Assembly: GCA_017634675.1 (NCBI GenBank)
Contig: JAGBMX010000137.1
Span: 58,118 to 122,117, forward strand
From: Selenomonadaceae bacterium
GTDB taxonomy: Bacteria > Bacillota > Negativicutes > Selenomonadales > Selenomonadaceae
DNA: 64,000 bases
Reading direction: 5' to 3'
Numbering within the stretch: the stretch's first letter is position 1; each line of letters opens with the position of its first letter. Positions 2,412-21,370 of this stretch are shown one piece after another. A program made the position numbers and the translations under genes. Under the pieces are notes generated by a model that was not told where the DNA came from, did not search any database, and saw only the letters and a program-made list of their open reading frames with translations.

Positions 2412-2867
2412 ATGCCAAAGAAAATCCTATTCGTTTGCCATGGGAATATCTGCCGATCCCCAATGGCGGAGTTTGTTATGAAGGATATGGTGCGTAAAGC
2501 CGGATTGGAAAAGGAAATTCTCGTGGATTCTAAAGCCTGCCGTACCGACGAAATCGGTTCCGACACTTATTACGGAACGAAAAATAAGCTCCGTGAAGAA
2601 GGCATACCGTTTACGCCAAGGAAAGCCAGTCAGATTACCGTTGCCGATTATGACAAATACGATTACATTATCGGCATGGATAGTGAAAATATGCGGGATT
2701 TGAGCCGTATAACCAAAGGCGATCCCAAAGGAAAGACACATCGTCTTTTGGAATTTGTCGGAGAGAGCCGCGATGTTGCCGATCCTTGGTACACCGATGA
2801 TTTTGACGCTACCTATCGTGATGTCGCTATTGGCTGTGAGGCGCTGCTGAAAACACTGACAAAGTAG
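2412..2867 (+). CDS. low-molecular-weight protein-tyrosine phosphatase
   Basis: MPKKILFVCHGNICRSPMAEF carries the CX5R(S) P-loop, and a DPWY motif lies near the C-terminus. The internal ATG at 2412 was chosen over the ORF-track start at 2370. Confidence 0.9.
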   Translation: MPKKILFVCHGNICRSPMAEFVMKDMVRKAGLEKEILVDSKACRTDEIGSDTYYGTKNKLREEGIPFTPRKASQITVADYDKYDYIIGMDSENMRDLSRITKGDPKGKTHRLLEFVGESRDVADPWYTDDFDATYRDVAIGCEALLKTLTK

Positions 2868-3031
2868 ACTAATTTATTCTGTATATCGTTACAAAATTCG
2901 TCTGACGATTCCTTAATTTTTGACATAAATTGAATACTATGATATTATAACTCTAAAATTACTACGAACGCAAGGAGGCGAGGAATATGGTAAACTATAG
3001 CGTTAAAACCCTCGTGAGCCTTGATTTTCCC

Positions 3032-3040
3032 GGGGGGGGG
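3032..3040 (+). repeat. poly-G tract, G9 (intergenic, at the end of an 18-codon mini-ORF)
   Basis: Counted directly from the sequence. Confidence 0.95.
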
Positions 3041-3188
3041 TAGATTTTAGTATAGATTTTGAAAATAAAAATTTCATACAAGAATATTTGCCGCGTGAAG
3101 CGGGCGCATTTTAAATGTGTTCGTTTTGCGTGGCTTTTTGTGTTTGAAAAAGGTAAAAATTTTATTGCTAAGAGGATGTTTGAAAACG

Positions 3189-4027
3189 ATGATAAAAACG
3201 TTAATTTATTGTGCCAGCGGTACAGGAGAGAGAGTTGCTTACTCGTTAGATGATGAGCGATATGAAGTTATCGGTTTGGTTGACAGTAATCCCGAGGTAT
3301 GGGGAAAGTCATTATATGGTATGGGGGGGTACTGCCGCCTTGTAAAATAAGGGAAATTGATTATGACTTAATCATAATTGCTAGATCTGTGTATGAAAAA
3401 GAAATTACGAATGATTTAGTAAATAAATATGGCGTAGATGAAAGTAAAATAGTAGCTTATCAACCTCAGACCCATGGAATTACGTGGGAAGATGAACGGA
3501 TTGTCATGTTGCGCAAGTGTATTTCGCTTATGAAGGAGCGAGATATTAGAGGAGATATGGCGGAAGTCGGGGTTTATACAGGCGAGTTCGCTAAACTTTT
3601 TAACCGTTATTATCCGGATAGAAAGCTTTATTTGTTTGATACTTTCGAAGGATTCGATTCAGAGCGTGACGCCGTCAATGCGGTGGACATCGATAACTTT
3701 AAAGATACATCTATAGATATAGTTTTAAATAAAATGAAGAACCCGAAAAATTGCATTGTAAGAAAGGGCTATTTTCCTGATACTGCGTACGGTATTGACG
3801 GAGATTTTGCTTTGGTAAGCCTTGATTGTGATTTGTATAATCCTATTTTGGCAGGATTGGAGTTTTTTTATCCCAAACTTGTACACGGCGGATATATTTT
3901 TGTACATGATTTCGGTTCTTATCATTATGAGGATGTAAAAAAAGCGGTGTTTGAGTTTTGCGGGCGTAACAACGCCATTATTTTTCCTTTGACGGATATA
4001 TGTTTGTCCATAGTGGTTTCAAAGTAA
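3189..4027 (+). CDS. TylF/macrocin-O-methyltransferase-like SAM methyltransferase, currently frameshifted at a G7 tract (phase-variable candidate, OFF)
   Basis: The N-terminal 47 codons (MIKTLIYCASGTGERVAYSLDDERYEVIGLVDSNPEVWGKSLYGMGG) are in frame 0. The remainder (VLPPCKIREIDYD...DMAEVGVYTGEFAKLF...LDCDLYNPILAGLEFFYPKLVHGGYIFVHDF) is in frame 2. The junction is G7 at 3323-3329; G8 would restore one ORF. Confidence 0.75.
3323..3329 (+). repeat. poly-G tract, G7 (frameshift point of methyltransferase 1)
   Basis: Counted directly from the sequence. Confidence 0.95.
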
Positions 4028-4040
4028 TCAGAGGAATTTT

Positions 4041-4960
4041 ATGAATACAGATTATTTGTTTGATGATGTAAAAAAGAACGAAGAGCATGGTTTTTACATG
4101 CTTGACGATAAGTACAGGAAAAAAATGAATGATTTTTATGAAAATGAGTACTATCAGCATGATCACGCTCTATATCAGCATAACGAATATGACGCCGTTG
4201 ACATGGCGCATAAAAACAATTTTTATGCGCAGAAGTTGTATATTATCAAAAAATATTCGGGGGGGGGTATACTTCGGAGTATCGAAGTTTCTTAGACATA
4301 GGTTGCGGCGAAGGTTTCGCTCTGCAATATTTTTATAATGCCGGGTGGAGCGTAACGGGGGTTGATTTTAGTTCTTACGGCATAACTGTGCATAATACGT
4401 CGATGAAAAAATTTCTGCTTCAAGGGGATTTTGAGAAAATTATAAACGAGCTTCATTCACAGGGAAAAACATTTGATTTTATAAATTCCGATAATGTGTT
4501 GGAACATTTGCCCGAGCCGGAAAAATTCTTCGAAAGCGTAAAAAAAGTTTCTAATGATAACACTATGCTTTGCGTTACGGTGCCTAACGATTTTTCCCGT
4601 ATCCAAAAATTGGCTTATGAAAACGGGTTTATCGACGGGGCTTTTTGGGTAGATAAGGAAACAAGCGAACATTTCAGTTATTTTTCCGTAGATTCTTTAT
4701 CTTCCTTGGGCTATGCCGCTGGGTATGAAAAATTAATCGCTACAGCAGATTGGCCTATAGATTTTTTCCTATTGCATAACCGTACAAATTACAGAAAGGA
4801 TAACGCCGTAGGGCATGATTGCCATATTGCTTGCGCATTGTTGGAAAACAGCATTTATGACGAATCTATGGATATTGCCGTAAACCTTTTTAAGACTCTG
4901 GCGGATGCCGGGGTAGGAAGAGAAATCAGCGTGTATTTTAAAATGGCGAAAGGTCGATGA
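4041..4960 (+). CDS. class I SAM-dependent methyltransferase, currently frameshifted at a G9 tract (phase-variable candidate, OFF)
   Basis: Frame 0 reads ...IIKKYSGGG and then stops at 4293-4295. Frame 2 continues YTSEYRSFLDIGCGEGFALQYFYNAGWSVTGVDFS (SAM-binding motif I) to the stop at 4960. The junction is G9 at 4259-4267; G10 or G7 would fuse the frames. Confidence 0.75.
4259..4267 (+). repeat. poly-G tract, G9 (frameshift point of methyltransferase 2)
   Basis: Counted directly from the sequence. Confidence 0.95.
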
Positions 4961-4963
4961 GAG

Positions 4964-6607
4964 ATGAAAGTGGCGTTGCTTTCAAATATTAATGCGGATC
5001 CCATCAACAGATATTTAAACGGTTGTAAAGATATTGAAATTTACGAACCTCAAGGTTATGGCAACGAACTTGGCGTATTGCTTAACAGAGATTCGTCTTT
5101 GTATGATTTCGCTCCGGATATGGTATTTATAATTACGGATTTAATGGAGTTAATTGGTCGCGATTTGGAAATAACTGCCGCCGGAAAAAAGATTGACGAA
5201 TGGTTTGCTCTTTTTGAAAGTTCGCTGAGCGAAGGGACGGTTTTTTACGTTTCAGATGCATTTGTACATGGATTTGAAGTAGATCTTGTTTGGGAAAGAA
5301 GCGTAATCACGGCTGTCGAAAACAAATGGGACGAAAATCTGTACGCCTTGGCAAATAAATATTCGAATGTTCGGGTTTTCGGATTAAATCGCATAATACG
5401 GCTATATGGTGAGAGCAACGCTTTTTCCCGTAAAATGTGGTATATGGGGAAAATACTTTATTCCGCCGTATTGCAAAAAGCTCTGGCGGAAGAAATAATT
5501 CACAGAACAGAGATAGAGATAAGGCAGCCTAAAAAGGCGTTGTTGCTTGATTTAGACAATACCTTGTGGAGAGGACTTGCCGGTGAAAACGATATTTCGC
5601 CTGTTATTTTATCTGAGGATGGGGTAGGCTTAGCGTATAAGAATTTTCAGAGAGGGATAAAGCTCTTAAAATCTCAAGGCGTTATATTGGGGATTGTGTC
5701 GAAAAACAATGAGGATGATGCGATATCTATAATAGAAAATCATCCTCATATGGTTCTGAGACTTGAGGATTTTGCAACGTATAGGATTAATTGGGAAAAC
5801 AAGGCTGAAAATATAGTATCAATATCCAAAGAGTTGAATATCGGATTGGATTCCATTGTTTTCATAGACGATAACAAAGCCGAGCAAGCGTTGATACGAG
5901 AAGCTTTGAGCCAAGTGTACGTTCCGGATTTTCCGGTTAATCCCGAGGAACTTTCGTCGTTTATAGCGGAAATTTACCGTCAATGTTTTGAAAAGCCGAT
6001 AGTTACTGATGAAGACAAAAATAAAACAAAACAGTATCGTGAAAACCAGACACGCAAGCAATTAATGAAAGCGTCTGTAGATTTTGCCGGATATTTGGAT
6101 AATCTAGAAATGCGTATGATTAGGGTAAATCCTGAAAAGCATAAAGAACGTTTGTTGCAGCTCGTAAACAAAACTAATCAATTTAACCTGACAACAAGAA
6201 GGCTAACGGAGCAGGAACTTGCAAATATTTTACGCGATAATAATTCGGAGGTCTTTCTTTATAGGGTACTGGATAGGTTCGGCGATAACGGCATTGTGGC
6301 TGCGGCAATGGTCGAGTATAGAAATGAGGCTGTAATAACAGAATTTACAATGAGTTGTCGGGTTATGGGAAGAAAAATAGAAGACGCAGTGATAGACGAT
6401 ATCGAAAAATATTCGGCAAGTCGCGGTTACGGCGAGCTTGTAGGCATATATATTCCCACGGAAAAGAATAAGCCGGTAAAGGATTTGTATTCGTCTTTGG
6501 GATATAAAAAAAGAGAGGTTTGCGACGACGGAACTTTTGAATTTGTTATTTCGCTAAAGGACGATTTGGTTAGAGATATTCACGTTGAAAGAACGACGGA
6601 GGTTTGA
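4964..6607 (+). CDS. FkbH-like HAD-IIIC phosphatase/acyl-carrier loader
   Basis: ALLLDLDNTLWRG (HAD DxDxT motif in the FkbH context), GIVSKNNEDDA, and a C-terminal GNAT-like region. An ACP gene follows immediately. Confidence 0.8.
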   Translation: MKVALLSNINADPINRYLNGCKDIEIYEPQGYGNELGVLLNRDSSLYDFAPDMVFIITDLMELIGRDLEITAAGKKIDEWFALFESSLSEGTVFYVSDAFVHGFEVDLVWERSVITAVENKWDENLYALANKYSNVRVFGLNRIIRLYGESNAFSRKMWYMGKILYSAVLQKALAEEIIHRTEIEIRQPKKALLLDLDNTLWRGLAGENDISPVILSEDGVGLAYKNFQRGIKLLKSQGVILGIVSKNNEDDAISIIENHPHMVLRLEDFATYRINWENKAENIVSISKELNIGLDSIVFIDDNKAEQALIREALSQVYVPDFPVNPEELSSFIAEIYRQCFEKPIVTDEDKNKTKQYRENQTRKQLMKASVDFAGYLDNLEMRMIRVNPEKHKERLLQLVNKTNQFNLTTRRLTEQELANILRDNNSEVFLYRVLDRFGDNGIVAAAMVEYRNEAVITEFTMSCRVMGRKIEDAVIDDIEKYSASRGYGELVGIYIPTEKNKPVKDLYSSLGYKKREVCDDGTFEFVISLKDDLVRDIHVERTTEV

Positions 6608-6608
6608 A

Positions 6609-6827
6609 ATGAGAGAGAAAATGATAGGTTTAATCGAAAAAACTTTAAATTTAGCCCATGGCGTTATCAATGAAGATACTAAAATTGAAGAAGTACCGGG
6701 GTGGGATTCTTTGGCCCATGTTTTGATTATCGGGGCCATTGAGTCGGATCTAGGCATTTCGATTCCATTAGACGAAGCTGTTGACATTGCTTCGGTCGGA
6801 GAATTATTTGAAAAAGCGGGGGTATAA
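6609..6827 (+). CDS. acyl carrier protein
   Basis: 72 aa with a GWDSLAHV phosphopantetheine-attachment-type motif. GGAGG RBS lies 6 nt upstream of ATG 6609, and the gene starts 2 nt after the FkbH stop. Confidence 0.8.
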   Translation: MREKMIGLIEKTLNLAHGVINEDTKIEEVPGWDSLAHVLIIGAIESDLGISIPLDEAVDIASVGELFEKAGV

Positions 6828-6829
6828 TA

Positions 6830-7804
6830 ATGGCTGCAACGCTTCGACTGATTACAAAAGATGATTTGGAAAGGATTATGAACTGGCGAATGTCCGAAAG
6901 GGTCACAAAATATATGAACACCAATCCTAAGCTGACTCTTGAAGGGCAGGAAAAATGGTTTGACTCTCTTGAAGGAAACGATAAAGTCAGGAACTGGATA
7001 ATTGAAGTAAACGGTGCGCCCGCCGGTTTGATCAATCTTGCGGATATTGATTGGGAAAAAGGAACTACGTCATGGGGGTATTATATAGGGGAGAATGATA
7101 AGCGTTCTTTAAAGTTGGCTGTATCCCTTGAAATGAGTTTATATGATTATTGTTTCGACGTTTTGGGATTTAACGAAGTACACAACGAAGTTTTTAAATT
7201 GAACGAAGGAGTATGGAAATTACACATAGCTTGCGGTTGCAAAGTGGTAAAAGAAGTTGTCGGCGAGGTGGAAAAAGAAGGAGTCGCTTACGACATAGTG
7301 CATCTTTCCATGGAACGCAACGAGTGGTTTAAAATTAGAGAAAAAAAGAAATATGAGAAGATAAATTTTGATGTGTTTGAAGGTATAATGGGGGGGGTAA
7401 CGGTACACCACATAGGCGTAGCAGTAGCGGACATAAAAAAATCAGTGGAAAGTTTTAAAAATTTCGGATGGGTTTGCGACGGAGAAATAATAAAAGATTC
7501 GTCTCGCAGCGTAAATCTTGCATTTTTAAAGAGGCGTAATTCAAACGAGATTTTGGAACTCGTATCTCCGATTAACGAACAGAGTCCGGTATTTGATATG
7601 CTTAATGCCAACAAAAATGTGGCGTTGCCCTATCATATTTGTTATGAAGTAAAGGATATAGATAAAACTGTGGATACTTTGAAATCCCGTAACTATATTC
7701 TTGTGGAAAAACCTAAACCGGCAATCGCTTTTCAACACAGACAAGTTGCTTTCTTGTTAAATCGCGATTCCGGTTTGTTGGAACTTTTGGAGGAAAGAAA
7801 ATAA
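6830..7804 (+). CDS. GNAT N-acetyltransferase fused to a VOC/glyoxalase (methylmalonyl-CoA-epimerase-like) domain
   Basis: The N-terminal half has RimJ/L-like GNAT features. The C-terminal half has VHHIGVAVADIKKSVESFKNFGW and ICYEV, typical of VOC/epimerase folds. An in-frame G8 tract (7390-7397) sits at the domain junction. Confidence 0.65.
   Translation: MAATLRLITKDDLERIMNWRMSERVTKYMNTNPKLTLEGQEKWFDSLEGNDKVRNWIIEVNGAPAGLINLADIDWEKGTTSWGYYIGENDKRSLKLAVSLEMSLYDYCFDVLGFNEVHNEVFKLNEGVWKLHIACGCKVVKEVVGEVEKEGVAYDIVHLSMERNEWFKIREKKKYEKINFDVFEGIMGGVTVHHIGVAVADIKKSVESFKNFGWVCDGEIIKDSSRSVNLAFLKRRNSNEILELVSPINEQSPVFDMLNANKNVALPYHICYEVKDIDKTVDTLKSRNYILVEKPKPAIAFQHRQVAFLLNRDSGLLELLEERK
7390..7397 (+). 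repeat. poly-G tract, G8 (in frame, at the GNAT/VOC junction)
   Basis: Counted directly from the sequence. Confidence 0.95.
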
Positions 7805-7810
7805 AAAGAA

Positions 7811-7853
7811 GGCTGTGAAGAAACTGAAAAACAGTTTCCTCACAGCCTTTTTA
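7811..7853. terminator. bidirectional hairpin terminator between convergent genes
   Basis: GGCTGTGAAGAAACTG / CAGTTTCCTCACAGCC forms a 16-bp stem with 1 mismatch, with an A-run before it and a T-run after it. Confidence 0.8.
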
Positions 7854-8303
7854 TGCGTTTTGTAACGTCTTTAAGCTTACAAATTCGTTTGCTTTTTGAA
7901 ATTTACTGCTTCCGTTTTGACTGCGGTAATTTAGAGTGTCCACATAGGAGCGGATACTGTCTGCTCCTTTTTTCATGCCGCCGGAGCCGTCGGAAAAAAT
8001 CTGCTTCGTGACACTTGAAAACGTCCCGTTGCCCATTTTCAGCACATCACTTGTAGTGCGACTTTTTGAGGATAACTTTTCGGTAAAATGCGTTCCGTCG
8101 CGATATATCCGAGCATTACCCCTGGCAAACCTGCTGTTGCCGATTTTAGTTTCGTTGCCGAAATTGGAAACATCCGTAAACGAATTATCCTGTTTGGAGA
8201 TGGTTGCGGTCATGGATTGACCGTTTTGTACAATCTCTCGATTTGTGCGTTGAAACAGGCTGCTGCCCCAATTTACCGCACCGAGCATCCCGGTAGAAGA
8301 CAT
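7851..8303 (-). CDS. hypothetical S/T/N/G-rich 150-aa protein
   Basis: Intact ORF, last gene of a minus-strand gene string, followed by a strong hairpin terminator. I recognise no motif. Confidence 0.45.
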   Translation of the reverse strand: MSSTGMLGAVNWGSSLFQRTNREIVQNGQSMTATISKQDNSFTDVSNFGNETKIGNSRFARGNARIYRDGTHFTEKLSSKSRTTSDVLKMGNGTFSSVTKQIFSDGSGGMKKGADSIRSYVDTLNYRSQNGSSKFQKANEFVSLKTLQNA

Positions 8304-8379
8304 AAAGCCTCACACCTTCCATGGAAAACCTTCTACACACTCTCATAATAGCATAATTTCAAAAAAAAATCCAGATTTT

Positions 8380-9039
8380 TTAATCAATAGTCAAAATTTT
8401 ATTTTTCAGCACATATACTAAAGCCTGTGTGCGGTCGGAAACATTTAATTTCCTGAAGATATTTGTGAGGTGATTTTTTACGGTTTTTTCGCTGACGCAG
8501 AGACTGTCGGCTATTTCTTGATTGCTTAAACCTTGGGTTATACAGCTTAACACGTCCATCTCCCGAAGGGTAAGACCGTTTGGACGGTGCCTTTTGTATA
8601 AGAGGCGAGCTTTTTCTATAATGTGTTCTTCCTTGCCGAAGAGTCTTTTGGCTATTTTAGGGTAAACAAACGCATTGCCTTTGTTTACTGCGTGAATTGC
8701 GCGAACAAGAGCCTCCGGCTCTACGTCTTTTAAAATATACCCAAGCGCGCCGTGTTTTAAGATTTCGAGAATATAGTTATCTCCATCGTGAATCGTAAGA
8801 GCTATAATTTTTGTCGGGATTTTTTTGCTCCCCAATTCTTTAGCTACCTCAAGCCCGTTTTTTTCAGGCATATTGATGTCCAAAAGCAGGATATCCGGGG
8901 AGAGTTCAAGGGTTTTTTTGATTGTTTCTTCACCATCTCCGGCTTCACCCACCACTTTTAAATCGTCTTCGAAGGAGAGCACGCGACGGATTCCCTCGCG
9001 AATAAGTGCGTGATCGTCCGCTATTAATATTGAAATCAT
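8380..9039 (-). CDS. NarL/FixJ-family response regulator (REC + LuxR HTH)
   Basis: MISILIADDHALIREG...LLLDINMP (receiver domain), then LTLREMDVLSCITQGLSNQEIADSLCVSEKTVKNHLTNIFRKL (LuxR HTH). ATG 9039 has a GGAG RBS; the ORF track extends to 9066. Confidence 0.9.
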   Translation of the reverse strand: MISILIADDHALIREGIRRVLSFEDDLKVVGEAGDGEETIKKTLELSPDILLLDINMPEKNGLEVAKELGSKKIPTKIIALTIHDGDNYILEILKHGALGYILKDVEPEALVRAIHAVNKGNAFVYPKIAKRLFGKEEHIIEKARLLYKRHRPNGLTLREMDVLSCITQGLSNQEIADSLCVSEKTVKNHLTNIFRKLNVSDRTQALVYVLKNKILTID

Positions 9040-9049
9040 ATCGTCACTC

Positions 9050-9793
9050 CTATATGCGTACTTCAAAACGACCGCCTTCCTTGGGAGGCTCTTGTTTTGG
9101 CGATATACTTGCGCTTTCTTTGGATTTTTTTTGTATCTGGGCTTGATAATCTCTTATTGCTTTTTTTTGAGGAACAGCAGATATATTTGAAGAAGGCATT
9201 TCAGCCGGTTCAGCCGCAAGGGAAGATAAATCTCTTTTGGAGAACCCTTGTGTATCCGATTGTTCCCTTATGAGAAATTTCTTTGCGAGGTAAACCAAAA
9301 GCGCCAATACGGCGGCAATCGTAAACCCCCAATACAGCGCGCTGTGCCCGCTATCGGAATTATGCAACCTAAAAGGAGGGGATGTTGTCGCCGCTTGCTG
9401 AGTTTCACCGCTATGCTCGTCCGGGAAAGTTTCTTTTACATTCACTCGATTTTCATTTCTGATATCTGACGCTTGAATTTGATTATTTTGTGGTTCGGCT
9501 GGGGTTTCTCTCGTATTTTTAGTGTTTTGAGACGGCTTTTCAGTTGAATTTTTGTTATTGTTTTCACCTGCCCGTTGACTCTCCTCGGGAGTTGACGTTG
9601 TAGTTTTAGAAAGAGGCCCCGAACCGTGAGCCACGGCATCCTTGGCTTTTTGTTCGTTTATGCTGTCGGTTGAAGTCGGACCGTAACTTTTAGGGCGCGG
9701 CATATCGGTTACGCTGCCACCGCCTTCAAGCACTACCCGCGGCGGCGTGGGAGGGGTAGGCGGCGTAGGAGGAGTAGGGAAGTTAAGCGCCAT
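9050..9793 (-). CDS. proline/threonine-rich, largely disordered single-pass membrane protein
   Basis: N-terminal PTPPTPPTPPTPP repeat and one hydrophobic helix (ALYWGFTIAAVLALLVYLA). The start overlaps the upstream stop (TAATG). Confidence 0.5.
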   Translation of the reverse strand: MALNFPTPPTPPTPPTPPRVVLEGGGSVTDMPRPKSYGPTSTDSINEQKAKDAVAHGSGPLSKTTTSTPEESQRAGENNNKNSTEKPSQNTKNTRETPAEPQNNQIQASDIRNENRVNVKETFPDEHSGETQQAATTSPPFRLHNSDSGHSALYWGFTIAAVLALLVYLAKKFLIREQSDTQGFSKRDLSSLAAEPAEMPSSNISAVPQKKAIRDYQAQIQKKSKESASISPKQEPPKEGGRFEVRI

Positions 9794-10758
9794 TAATTTG
9801 CATCTCCGAAAAGCAAGTAAGAAGTTGCCAAGCTATAGATACCTTCGCCGTAATCTTCGCGAATATCCGGACGTATCAAAAGATTCGGCAAAAATTTTAT
9901 AGATACTTCCTTAGAGGCAAGTTCAATAATTTTTTGTTTATCGTTTTCTCGTAACTTTTCGTTATAAAATATAACTCCGTGTGGATTCCAAAGCTGCGTT
10001 AAAATAACCAGGGTTTTTGCCGCATTTTCGATTGAATCACTAATGCTTAAATCGTTTCCCAAAGCTCCGGCAAAACCGTCGCGCCCTTTGTAGAGTTTGC
10101 CCTTTAGAAGTATTCCGCATCTTGGACTTTCCGATTTTTCCCAAGACACGCCTATAAGAGTTTCGCTTTCCGCAACTTTTCCGAAGAGTTTACCTGCGCC
10201 GTGTGTCGCCGCATGAATATCTCTAAAAAGGGTTACAGGTCGATTTATCTTAGAGAATAAAAGACTCGAAAGTGCTTCTCCTTTTAAAGCAGGATAGACG
10301 TTAGTTTCAAAGTTGCCCGCTATCTCCTCGCCGTCAAGTCCTAAGAGTATCGTTGTTATTTGAGGATATTTTTCAATGAAAGATTCAAATTCTTTTTGTA
10401 AAAATTCCGGTGTGACGTTATCGGTAATTGCCTCGCTACCCGTTATAACTTCGCCGAATAAATTTAATACAAACGAGGTAAGTTTAAAATTATTTCCTTC
10501 GCTCCAAATATAAGCTCCTAAAGCCAGTCGTTTTTCCGCAACAAAACGGTATTGTCTGGCAGGTCTTCCGCCGATTGTTACCGTATCTGTTATAAGTTCG
10601 GCGTCTCCACGTTTGATAAGAGCATCTAAATGAGCGTTGATTGTGACGACGCTAAGTCCGGTTTCTTTTGCAAGATTTGGTTTTGAAGTTACTTTAAGAC
10701 GCCTTAAGGCGTCAAGGGTAATTTCGAGATTTTTCGCCCGCATATCTTTCTTATCCAT
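9793..10758 (-). CDS. ROK-family-like transcriptional regulator (wHTH + sugar-kinase-like fold)
   Basis: The N-terminal wHTH-like segment (LAKETGLSVVTINAHLDALIKRG) is followed by an actin-like ATPase-type region. The assignment is by general resemblance only. Confidence 0.55.
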   Translation of the reverse strand: MDKKDMRAKNLEITLDALRRLKVTSKPNLAKETGLSVVTINAHLDALIKRGDAELITDTVTIGGRPARQYRFVAEKRLALGAYIWSEGNNFKLTSFVLNLFGEVITGSEAITDNVTPEFLQKEFESFIEKYPQITTILLGLDGEEIAGNFETNVYPALKGEALSSLLFSKINRPVTLFRDIHAATHGAGKLFGKVAESETLIGVSWEKSESPRCGILLKGKLYKGRDGFAGALGNDLSISDSIENAAKTLVILTQLWNPHGVIFYNEKLRENDKQKIIELASKEVSIKFLPNLLIRPDIREDYGEGIYSLATSYLLFGDAN

Positions 10759-10898
10759 ACAGCATCCCCTTTAGGGTAGAAATTACTTTATAAAGCTATG
10801 TTCTGATTGTACAAGATGAACCCAAAATTGTCAAGCTAAGCTAGAGAATTCACGCTAATTAGGTTAAAATTAATTTTATTTTGGATGGAGGAATTTTT

Positions 10899-11507
10899 AT
10901 GAAAAAGGGAACTACTTATGGTTACATTCGAGTGTCAACCGTTATGCAACATGATGACCGTCAAAGAGTCGCTATGAGGGAATTTGGCGTTGAATCTAAA
11001 TTTATATTTGCTGATAAACAAAGCGGCAAAGATTTTAATCGTCCGGCATATAAAAAACTAATGAAAAAACTCTCCGCCGGAGATGTTTTGGTGATTCAAA
11101 GCTTAGATAGGCTTGGTCGGGATTATAACGATATTTTGGAGCAATGGCGTATTATTACCAAGAAAAAACGAGCTTACATCGTAGTCTTAAATATGCCTAT
11201 TTTGGATACGAGAGTAAAAATAGCCGGTGATCTCACAGGTACTCTTATCTCTGATCTTGTACTCCAACTTCTTTCTTATGTGGCGCAGATGGAACGGGAG
11301 ATGAATCTTAGGCGCACGCTGGAGGGAATAGCGGCGGCGAAGGCGAGAGGTGTAAAGTTTGGACGAAGACCCATGGAACGCCCGAAAATTTATGAGACGA
11401 TTCGCCTGCGTTGGGAAGCCGGCGAATTATCGGCGCGTGAAGCTGCAAAACACATAGGAATAGCGCCTTCTACTTTTAGACGATGGGTGAAAACAGGCGA
11501 GCGATAA
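10899..11507 (+). CDS. serine recombinase (resolvase/invertase family)
   Basis: YGYIRVSTVMQHDDRQ (catalytic Ser), LVIQSLDRLGRDY, and a C-terminal HTH (AAKHIGIAPSTFRRW). GGAGG RBS precedes ATG 10899. Confidence 0.9.
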   Translation: MKKGTTYGYIRVSTVMQHDDRQRVAMREFGVESKFIFADKQSGKDFNRPAYKKLMKKLSAGDVLVIQSLDRLGRDYNDILEQWRIITKKKRAYIVVLNMPILDTRVKIAGDLTGTLISDLVLQLLSYVAQMEREMNLRRTLEGIAAAKARGVKFGRRPMERPKIYETIRLRWEAGELSAREAAKHIGIAPSTFRRWVKTGER

Positions 11508-11519
11508 ACCATGGTTTAT
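11504..11519. repeat. perfect 16-bp palindrome ATAAACCATGGTTTAT overlapping the recombinase stop codon
   Basis: Read directly. A second copy of GCGATAAACCATGG lies at 11595-11608. Confidence 0.8.
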
Positions 11520-11652
11520 GACCCGGCAATAAATAAAAAAAAATGGCAGGAAATTTGCGTTTTTTAGCGAAAATAATTTGTATAAAGTAGGTGGGCGATA
11601 AACCATGGGTTGCCGCCCACCCTGAATCGTAGAGTCTAAAGGAGCGGTTAAC

Positions 11653-12606
11653 ATGGCAAAAGAATTGCGTATGGAAAGAAAAGTTGTATTTACAGAGCGT
11701 CCTCCATTTCCTGAAAATATGCTTGTAGAACTTACTAACAAATGTAACCATCAATGTATTTTCTGTCACTATCGTCTTATGAGCCGTAAAAAAGCGGATT
11801 GTAATCGAGAATTTACCTTTGATATCATAAAACAAGCCTATGACAACGGTACGCGCGAGATTGGGTTTTATATGATAGGCGAGCCTTTTTTGAAGCGGGA
11901 TTTGGAGGAATACATTGCTTACGCCCATAATCTTGGTTTTACATACATTTATCTAACCACCAACGGCGCTTTGGCTACCTTAGAGCGCACCGTTAAATGT
12001 ATTGAGGCGGGATTAAACAGTATCAAATTCTCCATAAACGCCGCCACTACTGAGCATTACATACAAATACACGGGCACGACGATTATGAAACTGTAAAAA
12101 CAAATGTTCGCAATCTTAGCGAATATGTAAGAAAAAATAATATAGATCTTTCAATGTTTATCACTTTCGTAAAAACTAATATTACGTTAGATGATTTTGA
12201 TTTGTTGCTGGCGGATTTTTCATCCTTTGTTGACAAAATATACGAATGCGACTGCAACTCTCAAGGAACGCCTATAATCGAATTGATCAATAACGGTATT
12301 GTAAATCCTTTAATATACTTAAAAGAAAACCAAGAGCTATGCCAGATGGTTTTTAATCGCTTACATATAACTAGCGAAGGTTATTTAAACGCCTGTTGCG
12401 CAGATGCTGAAGGGCTTTTGAGCGCCGTTGATTTGCATGAAGTTTCACTAAAGGAAGCTTGGCATTCGGATATTATGGTTAATTTGCGTCGGCAATTTCT
12501 TAACAATACACTTAGTAAAGATGTTCTTTGCTATAACTGCTTACATAAAGAGCAACATAAGGTAAAGCCCTTAAACGAAGCGCTTTGGTCATCGAATGGA
12601 CGCTAA
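11653..12606 (+). CDS. radical SAM enzyme with C-terminal SPASM/twitch-like Cys cluster
   Basis: CNHQCIFC (CX3CX2C) lies near the N-terminus. The C-terminal Cys-rich region contains CDCNSQG, GYLNACCADAEG and CYNCLH. Confidence 0.85.
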   Translation: MAKELRMERKVVFTERPPFPENMLVELTNKCNHQCIFCHYRLMSRKKADCNREFTFDIIKQAYDNGTREIGFYMIGEPFLKRDLEEYIAYAHNLGFTYIYLTTNGALATLERTVKCIEAGLNSIKFSINAATTEHYIQIHGHDDYETVKTNVRNLSEYVRKNNIDLSMFITFVKTNITLDDFDLLLADFSSFVDKIYECDCNSQGTPIIELINNGIVNPLIYLKENQELCQMVFNRLHITSEGYLNACCADAEGLLSAVDLHEVSLKEAWHSDIMVNLRRQFLNNTLSKDVLCYNCLHKEQHKVKPLNEALWSSNGR

Positions 12607-12615
12607 TTATAAAAA

Positions 12616-14634
12616 ATGAGTCGTAATGTAGGAGGTTTACTGAAATTGAAAGAGTATAATATTGAAATACCGAAGTTTACAGCGCTTGAGAAAAAGCTTC
12701 AACAAGAGTCTGACTTTTTTAACTATATGAAGCTCTTGACAGAGGTTTTAACCCAGTATGTACTTATAATTACCGTTAGCGACACGCCTTCAGGTCCTAT
12801 GTTTACATCTGCTCATGCAAACGCTATGATGAGCGCACTTGGACTTGAAATGAATATGATGAATGCTTTTCGTATGCCTTATGTAGCAGTTATAGATCAT
12901 GGTAAGCTTGCGTATGAAAGCACGTCAAAAGGACGTGAGGAGCCTGTAATTGTGAATGGCAATTTAGGAGAACATACTCTTAGTATATATAGCGGAGGCC
13001 TTGACTGTAATCTTAATTTGGGGTTTGGATGTAATGCGCTAATCACCATAGATGGTACACATTATTTTGGAGACTTGGGATATAATTTTTTTCTATATAA
13101 CGTTAAAGATGACTATATTGCTGATATGTGCGTCTACGGAGCTTGGTATAATAGTGATGAACGTACGTTACACAGACCAACTTCCATTATAAAAGAGTTT
13201 ATCGCAAATTTAAATACCGGGGGGGGTATGCTTTGCTTTATGCATACACCTGTATTTACACCTTTATCAATGCGTTCAGAGCAGGAGAATCTTATTATTA
13301 ATTCAAAGTTTGGTTATAACATGATGTCTGATAAAAATGTTTTACAAAATATATGGAATAATAAAATTTTTCACTTCGTAAATGACTTTGACACCGAAGA
13401 AGATTTGCTCGAAGCTATAACGCCTCCAGACGCTTATGAGGATATTGATGGAATAATGAAGTTCAAAGACCATAAATCAAATGCGGTAAATACAAAAAAT
13501 GGAATACGGGTAACGACGGATCAACCGCAAAATCCCCAAAGAGCCATATATATTTTTGGTCCTTGCACAACTTTTGGAATAGGCGCAAAAGATAGTTATA
13601 CGATAGCGTCGTGTTTGCAGAGAAAATTAAACGAGTATTTGCCGGAGGAAAAATTCATAGTATATAATTATGGATTTTATATAAATGGCATAGGTGACGC
13701 TCAAGAACGACTCATAGCGATAATGAAATCATTGCCGATACAAAAAAACGATATTATTTTATTTGCGCAAAACGCTCCTTTTTACGGTATCCCATTTTGT
13801 GACTTAACCGAAAAATCAAAACGACCACATAATTACGGCGATATTTTTTTGGATAGCGGACATTTTACAGCTAACGGTAATCGTATGATAGCCGACGGTA
13901 TTTTTGATTTTTTAAAAAAATATGATTTTTTCAAAGATACGAAAATGAACATTACCAATGCTGGAGATTTAGGCGAAATAACTATTTTTGAAAATCACGA
14001 GAACGAACTTTTGACGATGTATAAATGTAAACTTAAAAATTTTTTCAAAACAAATATCTCTCCAAAAGTCGGTGCAATTGTTATGAACGCAAACCCTTTT
14101 ACATACGGACATCGCGCCTTGGTGGACGAAGCTTTGAAAAAATGCGATTACTTGATAGTTTTTGTCGTTGAAGAGGATAAATCCGATATACCTTTTAAAG
14201 ATAGGATTATGCTTGTAAGAGAAAATCTAAAAACGGAGTCCCGAGTTTTTATAATGCCTAGCGGAGAATTTATAATTTCCGGCAAGACTTTTAGCGAATA
14301 TTTCAGAAAAGAGAGTTTACAAGAGCAAAAAATAGATACTTCAAAAGATGTAATTCTTTTCGCAAAAGAAATTGCGCCATGCCTTAACATAAGCATTCGT
14401 TTTGCCGGCGAAGAGCCTACTGACAAAATTACGAGGCAATATAATGAGGATATGGCAAAAATTTTGCCTATGTATGGCATTGAGTTTATGGAGATAAAGC
14501 GAAAGATTACCGATGAAGGGGAAGTAATAAGCGCATCTACGGTAAGGAAACTTGTTAGAGCGTGCGAGTATGAGAAGTTAGAAACACTTGTTCCTCCCGT
14601 TACATTTGAGTATTTAAAGAGAAAATATTTGTAG
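12616..14634 (+). CDS. large multidomain protein: unknown N-terminal region, SGNH-like middle region, C-terminal CitC-type (citrate-lyase-ligase-like) adenylyltransferase domain
   Basis: The C-terminus has GAIVMNANPFTYGHRALVDEALKKCDYLIVFVVEEDKSDIPFKDR (NPFTxGH nucleotidyltransferase motif as in CitC). The middle has IYIFGPCTTFG ... DSGHFTANGNRMIA (SGNH block I/V-like, with Cys in place of Ser). An in-frame G8 sits at 13219-13226. An alternative TTG start at 12646 has an AGGAGG RBS. Confidence 0.7.
   Translation: MSRNVGGLLKLKEYNIEIPKFTALEKKLQQESDFFNYMKLLTEVLTQYVLIITVSDTPSGPMFTSAHANAMMSALGLEMNMMNAFRMPYVAVIDHGKLAYESTSKGREEPVIVNGNLGEHTLSIYSGGLDCNLNLGFGCNALITIDGTHYFGDLGYNFFLYNVKDDYIADMCVYGAWYNSDERTLHRPTSIIKEFIANLNTGGGMLCFMHTPVFTPLSMRSEQENLIINSKFGYNMMSDKNVLQNIWNNKIFHFVNDFDTEEDLLEAITPPDAYEDIDGIMKFKDHKSNAVNTKNGIRVTTDQPQNPQRAIYIFGPCTTFGIGAKDSYTIASCLQRKLNEYLPEEKFIVYNYGFYINGIGDAQERLIAIMKSLPIQKNDIILFAQNAPFYGIPFCDLTEKSKRPHNYGDIFLDSGHFTANGNRMIADGIFDFLKKYDFFKDTKMNITNAGDLGEITIFENHENELLTMYKCKLKNFFKTNISPKVGAIVMNANPFTYGHRALVDEALKKCDYLIVFVVEEDKSDIPFKDRIMLVRENLKTESRVFIMPSGEFIISGKTFSEYFRKESLQEQKIDTSKDVILFAKEIAPCLNISIRFAGEEPTDKITRQYNEDMAKILPMYGIEFMEIKRKITDEGEVISASTVRKLVRACEYEKLETLVPPVTFEYLKRKYL
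13219..13226 (+). repeat. poly-G tract, G8 (in frame, in the 672-aa gene)
   Basis: Counted directly from the sequence. Confidence 0.95.
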
Positions 14635-14664
14635 TGGATGATTATTAACAAAAATTAATTTTTG

Positions 14665-14891
14665 CCTGTCTGTAGACTTATTGTCGTTGTTTCCAATTTA
14701 AGAGGATACTCCCCCCGCCCCCCCTCTAGGAGGGGGGCTTTTATGTGGTTCATTCTTAGATAAGTGCCACAAAAGCAACAGTCAGAGAGCCTCCCTCTCA
14801 GAGGAAGGTGCCCGAAGAGCGGAGGGGTCGACCATGAAGAGCGCTATTTTTATTTTTGTACTACATGTGAATAGTAACAATACTTATTGTA
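14665..14891 (+). repeat. MITE-like element, family H, copy A (approximate ends)
   Basis: Shares the core CAGAGAGCCTCCC...GGTGCCCGAAG.GC.GAGGGGT.GACCATGAAGAGC and GTGAATAGTAAC with copies at 17949-18212 and, inverted, 44730-44965. Confidence 0.65.
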
Positions 14892-14923
14892 CAGACTGTA
14901 GACTTATTAAAAATAATTTTAAA

Positions 14924-15002
14924 ATGGGGGTCCAGAGGGGCGAAGCTCCTTTGGCGGGTCAAGGGCAGCGCCCTTGTGGGGTTTGGGGCAAAGCCCCAAA
15001 AA
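14924..15002 (-). repeat. GC-rich triple-hairpin repeat, family G, copy 1 (inverted)
   Basis: The reverse complement aligns with 48388-48466 and 49682-49761. Confidence 0.75.
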
Positions 15003-15080
15003 CTTCATTTTTCGACAGTCTGAACAATACTTATTGTAATTTCATTGTTTTGTCGATAATCTGCATTTTTTCAAAAATTA

Positions 15081-15108
15081 TGTAACACTTTTCATTTTCA
15101 GGCGTATA
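15081..15108 (+). promoter_or_regulatory. ECF-type promoter of P1: TGTAAC-N16-CGTATA
   Basis: TGTAAC at 15081-15086, a 16-nt spacer, and CGTATAAAG starting at 15103. It is part of a roughly 100-bp module repeated at P2 and P9. Confidence 0.6.
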
Positions 15109-15167
15109 AAGATACAGAAAGAAAAAAATAAAAGCCTTTAGGCAAACAATTTGAAAGGATGATTGTA

Positions 15168-15500
15168 ATGAAACTTAATAAGGAAAACAAACTAAGCAAT
15201 GATGAACTTGAACAGGTAGCCGGAGGTCATTGTGGGAATAGTTATAAAGATATGCAGCGAGCGTACGACAGGCAAATGCCGGGCTTTGAAAACATGGATC
15301 CCTCAAATATAGCTACGATGGTATATTGCCTCAAAAACTGGGATAAAGTGGTGGGAGAGCTAAAAAATATGTTCGCCCAATACGGAATCGAAATGACTTA
15401 CAAAAGCGACCCCTTAGAAGACAATCTTTATATGTACCAAGGCAGGCGGATTACCGACGGTCAAGCGTGGCAAATCCTCGACAGCCAAAGAAACCCCTGA
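15168..15500 (+). CDS. GG-leader cargo protein P1 (subfamily A)
   Basis: MKLNKENKLSNDELEQVAGG leader, then a 90-aa hydrophilic domain (HCGNSYKDM...YMYQGRRITDGQAWQILDSQRNP). RBS GAAAGGA and an ECF-type promoter lie upstream. Confidence 0.8.
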   Translation: MKLNKENKLSNDELEQVAGGHCGNSYKDMQRAYDRQMPGFENMDPSNIATMVYCLKNWDKVVGELKNMFAQYGIEMTYKSDPLEDNLYMYQGRRITDGQAWQILDSQRNP

Positions 15501-15542
15501 TTCCCATGAGTATCACGCTCATTAAAATTTTTTCAAAAATTA

Positions 15543-15570
15543 TGTAACACTTTTCATTTTCAATCGTATA
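15543..15570 (+). promoter_or_regulatory. ECF-type promoter of P2: TGTAAC-N16-CGTATA
   Basis: Same motif and spacing as for P1. Confidence 0.6.
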
Positions 15571-15629
15571 AAGATACAGAAAGAAAAAAATAAAAGCCTT
15601 TAGGCAAACAATTTGAAAGGATGATTGTA

Positions 15630-15974
15630 ATGAAACTTAATAAGGAAAACAAACTAAGCAGTGAGGAACTTGAGCAGGTAGTCGGAGGAAACGCTGGCGA
15701 AACTGCGCTTGAATCGGAATTTTTGCGAGACCTTGGATATAATATTCAAGAAATGGGTTTCTTTCACATGGAGCTTAATTGGGAAGAAGGGTCGGCTAAA
15801 GTCAGGGATGGATGGGCGCATTTCGGCGTAGATTGTCATACCGCCAGGTCGGTAAAAAACGAATATTACATCGACGGCAAGAGAGTTTCCAGGCGCCAGG
15901 CATTTCAGCATGCGGCATATAAAGCCGGAAAACCGTGGATCTATGATGATGATTATTCTAAATGCGCACTCTGA
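15630..15974 (+). CDS. GG-leader cargo protein P2 (subfamily B, divergent)
   Basis: MKLNKENKLSSEELEQVVGG leader. The 5' module is near-identical to P1. The core has ESEFLRDLGYN...GWAHFGVD...NEYYIDGKRVSRRQAFQHA. Confidence 0.8.
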   Translation: MKLNKENKLSSEELEQVVGGNAGETALESEFLRDLGYNIQEMGFFHMELNWEEGSAKVRDGWAHFGVDCHTARSVKNEYYIDGKRVSRRQAFQHAAYKAGKPWIYDDDYSKCAL

Positions 15975-16035
15975 TATAAAATGATAGGTTTACCCCCGAA
16001 ACATACGAAAAGAGATTTTTTCAAAAATTATGTAA

Positions 16036-16124
16036 GGCAACCTCTAAAAATTGCCTAATTTCCTTGATGTCTCCCCGCCCCTTCGGGGCGGGGAGACATC
16101 AAAAATAAGTTTTTAGAAGTGCCC
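16036..16124 (+). repeat. repeat element, family K, copy 1 (inserted in the P3 promoter module)
   Basis: Aligns along its length with 21923-22010. It contains the hairpin GATGTCTCCCCGCCCC-TTCG-GGGCGGGGAGACATC. Confidence 0.7.
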
Positions 16125-16151
16125 GTAACAATTTCCGTTTTCAGTCGTATA
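16124..16151 (+). promoter_or_regulatory. ECF-type promoter of P3-P4: CGTAAC-N16-CGTATA
   Basis: Same spacing. The -35 element abuts an inserted repeat element (16036-16124). Confidence 0.55.
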
Positions 16152-16203
16152 AAAATACAGAAATAAAACGTCTGAGGGCGAACGACACGAAAGGATGATT
16201 GTA

Positions 16204-16560
16204 ATGCAACTCGATAAAGAACACAAACTGAACGATGAGGAACTTGAGCAAGTATCGGGAGGATGCGACTATGAAACATCCGATGACAGCAAATTTTTGA
16301 ATGTTTTGCTCAGTGGAACCGATTATCATCGTTGCGATCGCTACGGCAAATTTAAAATTTTTTGGGGGAGCAGCAAACGTTACGGTCCATGTGAAGATAT
16401 CGAGAATTCTTGGAGGGTGCTTGGCATTGAGATGGTCCCTTACGCCTCTGATCGTAATGAATACTGGATGAACGGCAAACTACTTACGAGGGGCGAGGCT
16501 TGGGCCCATGCGGAGAAATTAGTGGGCAAGCACTTGGAACGCGCAGATTGGGACTGGTAA
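16204..16560 (+). CDS. GG-leader cargo protein P3 (subfamily B)
   Basis: MQLDKEHKLNDEELEQVSGG leader. The core has DDSKFLNVLL...RYG...WRVLGIEM...NEYWMNGKLLTRGEAWAHAEKLVGKHLERADWDW. Confidence 0.8.
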   Translation: MQLDKEHKLNDEELEQVSGGCDYETSDDSKFLNVLLSGTDYHRCDRYGKFKIFWGSSKRYGPCEDIENSWRVLGIEMVPYASDRNEYWMNGKLLTRGEAWAHAEKLVGKHLERADWDW

Positions 16561-16604
16561 CGTAAAAAGAAAAAAAGAACGTCTAAGAAAGGATAGTGAT
16601 TTAA

Positions 16605-16937
16605 ATGCCGAATTTTGAATATGCAAAACTCACCGATGATGAACTTGAGCAGGTAGCCGGAGGTCATTGCGGGGATAGTTATAAAGATATGCGTCAAGCG
16701 TACGAGAGGAAAATGCCGGGCTTTGAAAAACTGGATCCCGAGAGCCTGGATACGATGGTGTATTGTTTAAAAAACTGGGATAAAGTGGTGGGAGATCTAA
16801 AAAATATGTTCGCCCAATACGGAATCGAAATGACTTACAAAAGCGACCCATTAGAAGACAATCTCTATATGTACCAAGGCAGGCGCATTACTAACGGTCA
16901 AGCGTGGCAAATCCTCGACAGCCAAAGAAACCCCTGA
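16605..16937 (+). CDS. GG-leader cargo protein P4 (subfamily A; close paralogue of P1)
   Basis: MPNFEYAKLTDDELEQVAGG leader. By hand count the core differs from P1 at about 13 of 90 positions. It starts 44 nt after P3, so it is probably co-transcribed. Confidence 0.8.
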   Translation: MPNFEYAKLTDDELEQVAGGHCGDSYKDMRQAYERKMPGFEKLDPESLDTMVYCLKNWDKVVGDLKNMFAQYGIEMTYKSDPLEDNLYMYQGRRITNGQAWQILDSQRNP

Positions 16938-16998
16938 TTTCCATGAGTATGGTAGGTTTATCACTCAAACATACGAAAGAAAATTTTTAAAAAAAACA

Positions 16999-17026
16999 TG
17001 CAACATTTTTTGTTTTTTCTGAATAT
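16999..17026 (+). promoter_or_regulatory. ECF-type promoter of P5-P6: TGCAAC-N16-GAATAT
   Basis: Variant of the same motif, followed by the conserved AAAGCCTTTAGGCAA 5'-UTR box. Confidence 0.5.
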
Positions 17027-17086
17027 AAAGTACAGCAAGAATGAACGAAAGCCTTTAGGCAATGAGAAATCAAGGAGATGTTGAAA

Positions 17087-17461
17087 ATGGCAAAACGCGA
17101 AGAAATTCTCAAAAAAATTAATCTTGAACTTAATAAGTTGAGCGATGAAGAACTTGAACAAGTGGCGGGCGGCAATGCGGAGCAAACGTCAAATGACAGT
17201 CGCTTTCTTAACAGCTTGAACGGCTCGACAGACCGTTACGGCCCGGAACGTATCGCGTGGTCGTTTGGAATTCATAATGCGGAAATTGAAAAAGGTTGGG
17301 CGACAGTCGGAATAAAAGCAACAGTCTATTTCGCTTGCGGCGGTTTCGGCAAAAGCAACAGATATTATCTTAACGGCCGAGAAATCTCGCAGGAAGAGGC
17401 GCGTCAGCACGCAATGGAAGTCACTCAGCACTATATGACGGAAAAAGATTGGAAATGGTAA
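17087..17461 (+). CDS. GG-leader cargo protein P5 (subfamily B)
   Basis: MAKREEILKKINLELNKLSDEELEQVAGG leader. The core has NDSRFLNSLNGSTDRYG...GWATVGIK...NRYYLNGREISQEEARQHAMEVTQHYMTEKDWKW. AAGGAG RBS lies 10 nt upstream; the ORF track starts at 17078. Confidence 0.8.
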   Translation: MAKREEILKKINLELNKLSDEELEQVAGGNAEQTSNDSRFLNSLNGSTDRYGPERIAWSFGIHNAEIEKGWATVGIKATVYFACGGFGKSNRYYLNGREISQEEARQHAMEVTQHYMTEKDWKW

Positions 17462-17500
17462 AAAATTTTGCAACTATGTGAAATAGAGGAGATGTTTAAA

Positions 17501-17839
17501 ATGGTACAGAATATAGAGATGAACAAATTAAACGATAGCCAGCTTGAAAATGTTGCGGGCGGTTGCAGCTATGAGTCGTTTGAATTATTCCACGCTTTAA
17601 GAGGCAACAATGCCTTTCAGAAAGATTATCCCGGTCTTTTTGCTCCTCCGGTGAACCAGGAGGTTAAGATAGACGATAACATTATGGAGAAAGCGCTCTT
17701 GGAAAAGATGGGAATTAAGGCGCAGATTAATTGGGGGCCTGACGAATGGTTCGATTGCAATAAGTATGTGTCTGCAGACACCGGCAAGAGATTGTATCAT
17801 GATGATGTTATAAAAGCCATAAAGAATTACAAAGGTTAA
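17501..17839 (+). CDS. GG-leader cargo protein P6 (divergent)
   Basis: MVQNIEMNKLNDSQLENVAGG leader followed by a divergent 92-aa core. It starts 39 nt after P5 and is followed by a strong terminator. Confidence 0.7.
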   Translation: MVQNIEMNKLNDSQLENVAGGCSYESFELFHALRGNNAFQKDYPGLFAPPVNQEVKIDDNIMEKALLEKMGIKAQINWGPDEWFDCNKYVSADTGKRLYHDDVIKAIKNYKG

Positions 17840-17867
17840 AAAATTACCTTTTGTTGCTGAAACATAT

Positions 17868-17926: not shown

Positions 17927-17948
17927 AGCATCATTTCCACAACGAATA

Positions 17949-21299: not shown

Positions 21300-21370
21300 T
21301 TTAATAGCTCCTTTTTTACTTTTGATTTCACATAAGCGCTTAGCGCGAAACACCGTTTCGCAGGTCGTTG

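Follow-up and report, generated by a model that had tools for sequence, protein, structure and literature searches.

Does a cluster of five poly-G tracts in the genome of a Selenomonadaceae bacterium mark a set of genes that are switched at random, and if so, what do these genes act on? The tracts lie in a stretch of 64,000 nucleotides (hereafter the window; contig JAGBMX010000137.1 of assembly GCA_017634675.1), which comes from a rumen member of the Selenomonadaceae (Negativicutes, Bacillota), a diderm Firmicutes. Homopolymeric G tracts of this length undergo slipped-strand mispairing and drive the ON/OFF switching of glycan, lipooligosaccharide, capsule and flagellin-modification genes in Campylobacter, Helicobacter, Neisseria and Haemophilus, and the diversification of nonulosonic-acid glycans by poly-G contingency loci is textbook knowledge, both in Campylobacter and in a small number of other pathogens adapted to their hosts. 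An earlier note on this DNA had proposed a phase-variable surface-decoration system spread over at least four genes, outside these classical lineages. The work described here supports that proposal: tract length sets the reading frame in four genes, tract lengths vary among close relatives, tract sites are conserved in diverged ones, and the lineage is Selenomonadaceae. We consider it likely that the island carrying the tracts is a contingency locus that tailors a nonulosonic-acid, hence sialic-acid-like, surface glycan, most probably that of flagellin, by means of the five tracts and of an inversion, and that the tracts, probably through slipped-strand mispairing, switch their genes randomly.

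Five poly-G tracts and the reading frames they set

The tracts, called T1 to T5 in 5' to 3' order, are G9 at 3032-3040, G7 at 3323-3329, G9 at 4259-4267, G8 at 7390-7397 and G8 at 13219-13226; direct counting gave exactly the coordinates of the earlier note. Its further statement, made by eye, that outside small repeat elements the 64 kb hold no other G or C run of at least 7 is correct for G; among C runs there is a single C7 at 14718-14724, in a terminator stem. All five tracts are inside 10.2 kb, with the G always on the sense strand, and each of these homopolymers of at least 7 nt is found within an open reading frame (ORF) or a 5' control region. Four are intragenic and T1 is in a leader ORF before the first methyltransferase gene, which agrees with the previous description of tracts in or next to genes for methylation and acyl-type modification enzymes.

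The enrichment of tracts is beyond chance, as judged from the window and from about 100 kb of related loci. In the window the length spectrum of G runs is bimodal, with 102 runs of G4, 21 of G5, one of G6, one of G7, two of G8 and two of G9. Under an order-1 Markov model of the 64 kb, 0.43 runs of at least G8 are expected and four are observed (about 9-fold), and for runs of at least G9 the expectation is 0.10, against two observed. In the related loci, all G or C runs of at least 8 except one fall within glycan-tailoring genes. The C7 at 14718-14724 was considered as a sixth contingency tract and rejected, as it pairs with a G6 at 14732-14737 to form the terminator stem. The longest homopolymer of the window is an A13 at 55860-55872, just upstream of a minus-strand gene whose ORF ends at 55844.

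T2 lies at codon 45 of a gene for a TylF-like O-methyltransferase with a C2185-like N-terminal domain (3189..4027, + strand; Pfam TylF, E=2e-17), and T3 at codon 73, ten residues ahead of the S-adenosylmethionine (SAM) motif, of a gene for a class-I SAM methyltransferase (4041..4960, +; Pfam Methyltransf_23/11/31). Reading the frames in silico, both genes are frameshifted, hence OFF, in the window: G8 would be needed at T2 for an intact methyltransferase of 279 amino acids (aa), and G10 at T3 for an intact one of 306 aa. The repaired 279-aa protein aligns end to end with homologues of 278-282 aa, and the tract corresponds to a variable loop. A 242-aa ORF starting at the ATG at 3299 was examined as the true methyltransferase and rejected, because its GAGG is just 1 nt from the start and the homologues require 37 upstream residues. 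T4 and T5 are in frame, hence ON, in the window. T4 occupies linker codon 187 of a gene for a fusion of a PseH-like GNAT N-acyltransferase with a VOC domain (6830..7804, +), and T5 codon 202 of a gene for a 672-aa protein with a C-terminal citrate-lyase-ligase-like (CitC-like) adenylyltransferase domain (12616..14634, +; Pfam Citrate_ly_lig, E=1e-56); a sequence search of the PDB with the latter gave no match. Apart from the tract itself, both flanking frames are intact in these genes, and a change of one unit in tract length toggles a full-length and a truncated product, in silico as well as in the natural alleles described below.

Variation in tract length and in orientation

The earlier note had suggested comparing tract lengths in sister isolates. 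The comparison set used here (contigs are given L numbers) comprises about 17 contigs 97.5-100% identical to the island, found by exact-protein look-ups in ENA, Logan, JGI and NCBI assemblies and originating from other metagenome samples and sister metagenome-assembled genomes (MAGs); an exact 24-mer scan of metagenome contigs returned no match, and housekeeping proteins looked up exactly had no record. All five tracts are polymorphic in this set. Over 11,519 bp, L001 differs from the window by no substitution and by a single gap, one G fewer in T2, while L002 differs by two substitutions and a single gap, one G more in T1. Over the 17 contigs, seven of the nine indels are within the five tracts, the remaining DNA being almost indel-free. 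By contrast, the A9 and T8 homopolymers (8361, 9125 and 9161) are constant in all comparison contigs, which argues against a general homopolymer artefact.

The lengths found are 9 (window, L001 and L003) and 10 (L002 and L071) for T1; 7 and 6 for T2; 9, 10 and 14 for T3; 8, 9 and an in-frame A+G7 for T4; and 8 and 9 for T5. Several of these alleles change the predicted product. The G10 allele of T3 in L071 restores the intact 306-aa methyltransferase ORF, and a G14 allele is present in L073 and in the sister MAG GCA_017530025.1. The G9 allele of T4 (L068, L082 and L083) splits the fusion gene into a 209-aa GNAT ORF and a 126-aa VOC ORF. Since homologues consisting of the GNAT domain alone (about 180-190 aa) occur in nature, the OFF state of T4 may yield an alternative enzyme rather than a null. 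Similarly, where T5 is G9, which is the case in L069 and one JGI contig, two ORFs of 228 and 454 aa replace the 672-aa gene. The switching is presumed to be reversible at high frequency.

The T2 and T5 sites are also conserved at a larger distance: homologues of 44-77% identity, including one from an isolate genome, carry a tract at the same codon position. At the T2 site, the L094 contig of another species has an out-of-frame G8 in a methyltransferase 77% identical to that of the window. Many database entries of the 672-aa family are 437-476 aa long and cover only the C-terminal two thirds of the protein; in the corresponding DNA, an upstream ORF of about 195 aa ends in poly-G at the homologous position. 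Among homologues of 44-62% identity the T5 site is G7, G8, G9 or G11. One such locus has G11, G11 and G9 (L084 at 9933, L085 at 2139 and L086 at 667), where the ON length would be G10, and a second has G8 (L088 at 5572 and L089 at 2694), where it would be G9. The cultured isolate Selenomonas sp. AB3002 (GCA_000702545.1, L092) has an in-frame G7 at the T5 codon of an orthologue 44% identical. Long tracts kept at fixed sites across 44-77% identity fit selection for mutability, not decay.

Three further observations concern these relatives. The stand-alone homologues of the 672-aa gene in L084-L086, L088 and L089 are in other genomic contexts, all out of frame and lacking a radical-SAM partner. 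In the legionaminic-acid cluster of AB3002 a C9 splits a PglD-like acetyltransferase gene and an in-frame G7 is also present in the next gene; the tracts of this isolate are at 2342-2350, 10556-10562 and 12825-12831 of L092. In L093 (MAG GCA_029782595.1) an intergenic C9 followed by an A9, at 8645-8662, lies about 1.3 kb upstream of an intact cassette.

The second variable element is an inverton just upstream of operon 2, between this operon, which starts with a radical-SAM gene, and a gene for a small serine recombinase (10881..11507, +; Resolvase and helix-turn-helix domains, Pfam Resolvase E=1e-29), presumed to be the invertase. The PDB matches of the recombinase are the Sin, Tn3 and gamma-delta resolvases and the Gin invertase. 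A 78-bp segment (11520-11597; the whole element is 11509..11608) is bounded by two 11-bp inverted repeats, CCATGGTTTAT at 11509-11519 and ATAAACCATGG at 11598-11608, which are the halves of a near-palindromic 16-bp ATAAACCATGGTTTAT site that overlaps the recombinase stop codon. Both orientations are found: orientation A in the window, L080 and L078, and orientation B in L077, L081, L082, L079 and at the L002 junction, the sequence of L002 beyond 11519 being the reverse complement of 11554-11608. Nearly all contigs that enter from the left break at 11519. The two junction types occur within a single sample (ERZ28655212), and both orientations were assembled in independent samples. The adjacent recombinase, the inverted repeats and the two orientations thus together identify a serine-recombinase inverton. 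We propose that the recombinase flips the 78-bp segment ahead of operon 2 and that this would affect transcription. In orientation A, only a TG-TATAAA element (11579-11586, TATAAA at 11581-11586) faces operon 2; the transcript would then begin with a GC-rich hairpin (11590-21) at its 5' end. Orientation A is tentatively the ON state of operon 2.

T1 differs from the other tracts in being ahead of the genes. In a scan of 2800-14900, two promoter matches at 11 of 12 consensus positions were found, and the only one on the + strand is the operon 1 promoter, a strong sigma-70-like, TG-extended TTGACA-17-TATTAT (2920..2948, +). It is followed by the leader ORF (2987..3043, +; 18 codons at G9), which has an AAGGAGG ribosome-binding site and contains T1. 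Between this ORF and the first gene is a terminator-like hairpin (3090..3134, +) with a 21-bp stem and a predicted stability of -30.7 kcal/mol, followed by the U-run CUUUUUGUGUUUG; it is present in the minimum-free-energy fold and in the centroid fold alike. With G9, G8, G11 or G12 at T1 the leader ORF has 18-21 codons and ends at 3043-3050; with G10 or G7 it has 41-42 codons and a stop ending at 3114, the apex of the hairpin. The short form is found in the window, L001, L003 and L071, and the long form in L002. T1 might therefore be imagined as a phase-variable transcription attenuator, a master switch of operon 1 placed over the per-gene switches T2-T4. The hairpin would be free to form before the first gene when the leader ORF is short, and a ribosome translating the long form would melt the 5' half of its stem, so that transcription could continue through all of the operon. 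We put this forward as a doubtful idea. The cassettes of L093 and L094 have no homologous leader ahead of them, so T1 is specific to this lineage.

The probable glycan target and alternative readings

What the island acts on was approached through the remaining genes of operon 1 and their neighbours in other genomes. Between the methyltransferase genes and the GNAT-VOC gene are a gene for a 547-aa FkbH-domain/HAD-IIIC protein (4964..6607, +; TIGR01686 FkbH, 269 bits against a cut-off of 147), named 'HAD-IIIC family phosphatase' by NCBI, and, starting 2 bp downstream, a gene for a 72-aa acyl carrier protein (ACP; 6609..6827, +), whose PP-binding and TIGR00517 matches are below cut-off. An FkbH protein above its cut-off with a dedicated ACP is the pattern of a glyceryl-ACP system. 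The FkbH-ACP pairing is kept in more than 40 loci, and the FkbH-ACP-GNAT triad is conserved at about 50% identity in Lachnospiraceae loci. A scan of genome contigs with the FkbH protein did not retrieve the species itself, the best matches being 53%-identical Lachnospiraceae proteins, which served for gene context and not for tract comparison. When 112 neighbouring ORFs of these Lachnospiraceae loci were sorted by family, the commonest were GT2, NeuB, CMP-sugar cytidylyltransferase, GT52 and polysialyltransferase-like proteins, and NeuB and the CMP-nonulosonic acid synthetase (cytidylyltransferase) are each present in seven of eight loci.

In L094, the cassette (methyltransferase with G8, methyltransferase remnants, FkbH, ACP and GNAT-VOC) is 62-77% identical to that of the window. 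On either side of it are pseB, pseC, pseG, pseF and pseI, each scoring above the cut-off of its NCBIfam equivalog; the GNAT orthologue reaches 91.8 bits on PseH TIGR03585 (cut-off 93.1) and occupies the sole vacant PseH slot, and the cluster directly follows flaG-fliD-fliS-flgN. In AB3002, the orthologue of the 672-aa gene lies within a LegB/NeuC/NeuB/CMP-synthetase/GT52 (legionaminic-acid) cluster. The placement of homologous cassettes inside pathways for pseudaminic or legionaminic acid, in one case beside flagellar genes, supports the idea of a surface-decoration system. The cassette probably serves to acylate and methylate a flagellar nonulosonic-acid glycan of the pseudaminic or legionaminic type.

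We propose the following model. In operon 1, a glyceryl unit is predicted to be assembled on the ACP by FkbH, O-methylated by the methyltransferases and transferred by the GNAT to the 4-amino group of a UDP-sugar precursor of pseudaminic acid (Pse), in place of acetyl. The GNAT domain has as its best PDB match the sugar N-acyltransferase FdhC, and the C-terminal VOC half resembles methylmalonyl-CoA epimerase and glyoxalase. Operon 2, with its radical SAM protein and CitC-like enzyme, would contribute a further modification. The state of T2 and T3 would then decide the methylation pattern, the presence of the VOC domain on the GNAT would depend on T4 (fusion protein or GNAT-only protein) and T5 would toggle the 672-aa enzyme. 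Our literature search found nothing relevant on FkbH combined with flagellin glycosylation, so that a link of FkbH and ACP to the di-O-methylglyceroyl group of Campylobacter jejuni is a presumed one. The flagellin locus of C. jejuni presumably also encodes an HAD-IIIC/FkbH-like protein, ACPs and a SAM methyltransferase.

Several observations weigh against this account of the locus and its target. The window has no pse or leg core genes (PseB, PseC, PseG, PseI, PseF), no flagellin and no Maf-type transferase. The absence of the pse core genes means that the island is a tailoring module and not the pathway itself and, as flagellar genes are also absent, the target, flagellin or a polysaccharide, is inferred from other genomes. 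The GNAT domain, at 90.4 bits on PseH TIGR03585, is just under the cut-off of 93.1, and a consensus promoter scan found no full promoter within the invertible segment. The window itself belongs to a MAG, and the tract lengths come from population consensus sequences, not from reads. The ON length of T2, G8, is absent from the compared sequences (OFF in 6/6), T3 is ON in only one of seven, and the G9 allele of T4 is restricted to one sub-lineage of about 98% identity, so that it may be a fixed difference.

The choice of flagellin can be questioned while accepting the switching: the decorated nonulosonic acid could belong to a lipopolysaccharide O-antigen or a capsule. We give this possibility less weight than flagellin, but there is evidence for it: in the Lachnospiraceae, genes of the GT2, GT52, polysialyltransferase-like, GtrII and ABC-transporter kinds abound around the cassette and flagellar genes are absent, GT52 and GT1 are part of the legionaminic-acid cluster of AB3002, and the window has no flagellar genes. 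Nevertheless, the nearest cassette with a full pathway, that of L094, directly adjoins flagellar genes, which argues for flagellin as the probable target.

A different view is that the island is being lost, its frameshifts simply reflecting homopolymer indels as the commonest inactivating mutations in decaying accessory genes, with no adaptive switching. The excess of OFF alleles at T2 (6/6) and T3 (6/7) would fit such decay, as would the second methyltransferase gene of L094, fragmented without a G tract, and the homologues of the 672-aa gene, split in 7/7 contigs from two other loci. However, the tract-bearing genes are otherwise intact in both flanking frames and full length compared with their homologues, an ON allele of T3 exists, and the OFF lengths found in one and the same gene, G9 and G11, lie on both sides of its ON length, G10. 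Moreover, decay would erode the tracts, yet runs of 7-14 G persist at the same codon in homologues as distant as 44% identity, and the G-run spectrum is bimodal. We therefore find decay unlikely. Errors at G homopolymers, to which the short-read metagenome assemblies that make up the window and most comparison contigs are prone, are a very improbable cause of the variation, given that the tracts are internal with conserved flanks, that the same sites were recovered by independent studies with different assemblers, in different species and also in an isolate, that the A9/T8 runs in the same contigs are constant, and that nine contigs agree on G8 at T4 and five on G9 at T3.

Surrounding sequence and comparison with known systems

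The island extends over 2.9-14.7 kb (about 12 kb) and contains two operons on the + strand. It is low in GC, 35-41% against 45-49% in its flanks (window 42.7%). Five of its proteins either match NCBI MAG proteins in the series MBO6179703-712 exactly or correspond to the same gene; that series bears the name Selenomonadaceae bacterium and belongs to a contig of 159.5 kb. The first gene of operon 2 encodes a 317-aa radical SAM/SPASM protein (11653..12606, +; Pfam Radical_SAM and SPASM), and directly after the stop of the 672-aa gene the operon ends in an intrinsic terminator (14717..14738, +), the C7 and G6 stem being followed by CTTTTAT. Between the operons is a minus-strand block (7851-10758) with genes for a LuxR-type response regulator (8380-9066) and for three proteins that match no family, one of them Ser/Thr/Asn/Gly-rich and 150 aa long (7851-8303, minus strand); no histidine kinase was recognised. 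To the left of the island are a UvrA-like gene and a gene for a low-molecular-weight phosphatase, and the right side of the window is housekeeping in nature (PNPase, Tgt, SecDF, MurB and GlyS). Rfam and tRNA scans of the window for RNA genes were empty.

Downstream of the island, small paralogous ORFs of 83-127 aa with no Pfam match are found at 14760-18210 and 21240-21800, with an ECF-type sigma factor gene among them (19344-20009). The region contains repeats of 100-300 bp at 80-96% identity (15065-15226/15527-15688, 15189-15488/16626-16925 and 14767-14878/18094-18205) and an inverted copy at 21642-21800, and these ORFs may form another variable or recombining gene set. In addition, a dispersed repeat of 158 bp at 54288-54445 has an inverted copy, 88% identical, at 1464-1620 of L001, about 3.5 kb upstream of the left end of the window.

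A literature search found no link between Selenomonas or Negativicutes and phase variation by homopolymeric tracts. Tract sites are conserved in several Selenomonadaceae species, a cultured isolate among them, which suggests that flagellar or surface glycans are under strong fluctuating selection in a commensal ecosystem; phages, protozoal grazing and host antibody are candidate pressures. On the practical side, 'frameshifted' glycan genes in MAGs of Selenomonadaceae should not be taken for pseudogenes or assembly errors. In addition, FkbH, ACP and GNAT with two O-methyltransferases make a compact candidate pathway for glyceroyl-type N-acyl groups on pseudaminic acid.

Three known systems invite comparison. 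The FkbH glyceryl-ACP pathway of polyketide synthesis (methoxymalonyl-ACP, tetronates) likewise has an FkbH above cut-off beside a dedicated ACP and O-methyltransferases; here, in contrast, there is no polyketide synthase and the acyl group is predicted to reach an amino sugar via the PseH-like GNAT. Known invertons (Hin/Gin-type switches, Bacteroides polysaccharide promoters, the Clostridioides difficile flagellar and cwpV switches) share with ours a short segment bounded by inverted repeats immediately upstream of a surface-modification operon, an adjacent site-specific recombinase and the coexistence of both orientations in natural populations. Unlike them, the segment described here is tiny (78 bp) and its repeats are the halves of a near-palindromic site overlapping the recombinase stop codon.

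The closest parallel is the flagellin O-glycosylation locus of C. jejuni NCTC 11168 (Cj1293-Cj1342), which has ten poly-G/C tracts and in which 2,3-di-O-methylglyceroyl-Pse depends on the poly-G gene Cj1295 (PMC3068675). Both loci combine several intragenic tracts with one intergenic tract, clustered in genes for the tailoring of pseudaminic or legionaminic acid and acting by frameshift ON/OFF, and a glyceroyl-type, O-methylated N-acyl group on Pse, known in C. jejuni, is predicted here. The differences lie in the host, a rumen commensal of the Bacillota/Negativicutes instead of a pathogen of the Campylobacterota; in the genes concerned, which encode a TylF-like methyltransferase, a class-I methyltransferase, GNAT-VOC and a CitC-like enzyme here and are maf, 617/1318-family genes and Cj1295 there; and in the predicted site of acylation, the 4-amino group (future N7) here and N5 there. 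The recombinase inverton and the leader-ORF tract are additional here. The poly-G strategy of Campylobacter is now seen in a rumen diderm Firmicutes, where it is combined with an inverton in one island.

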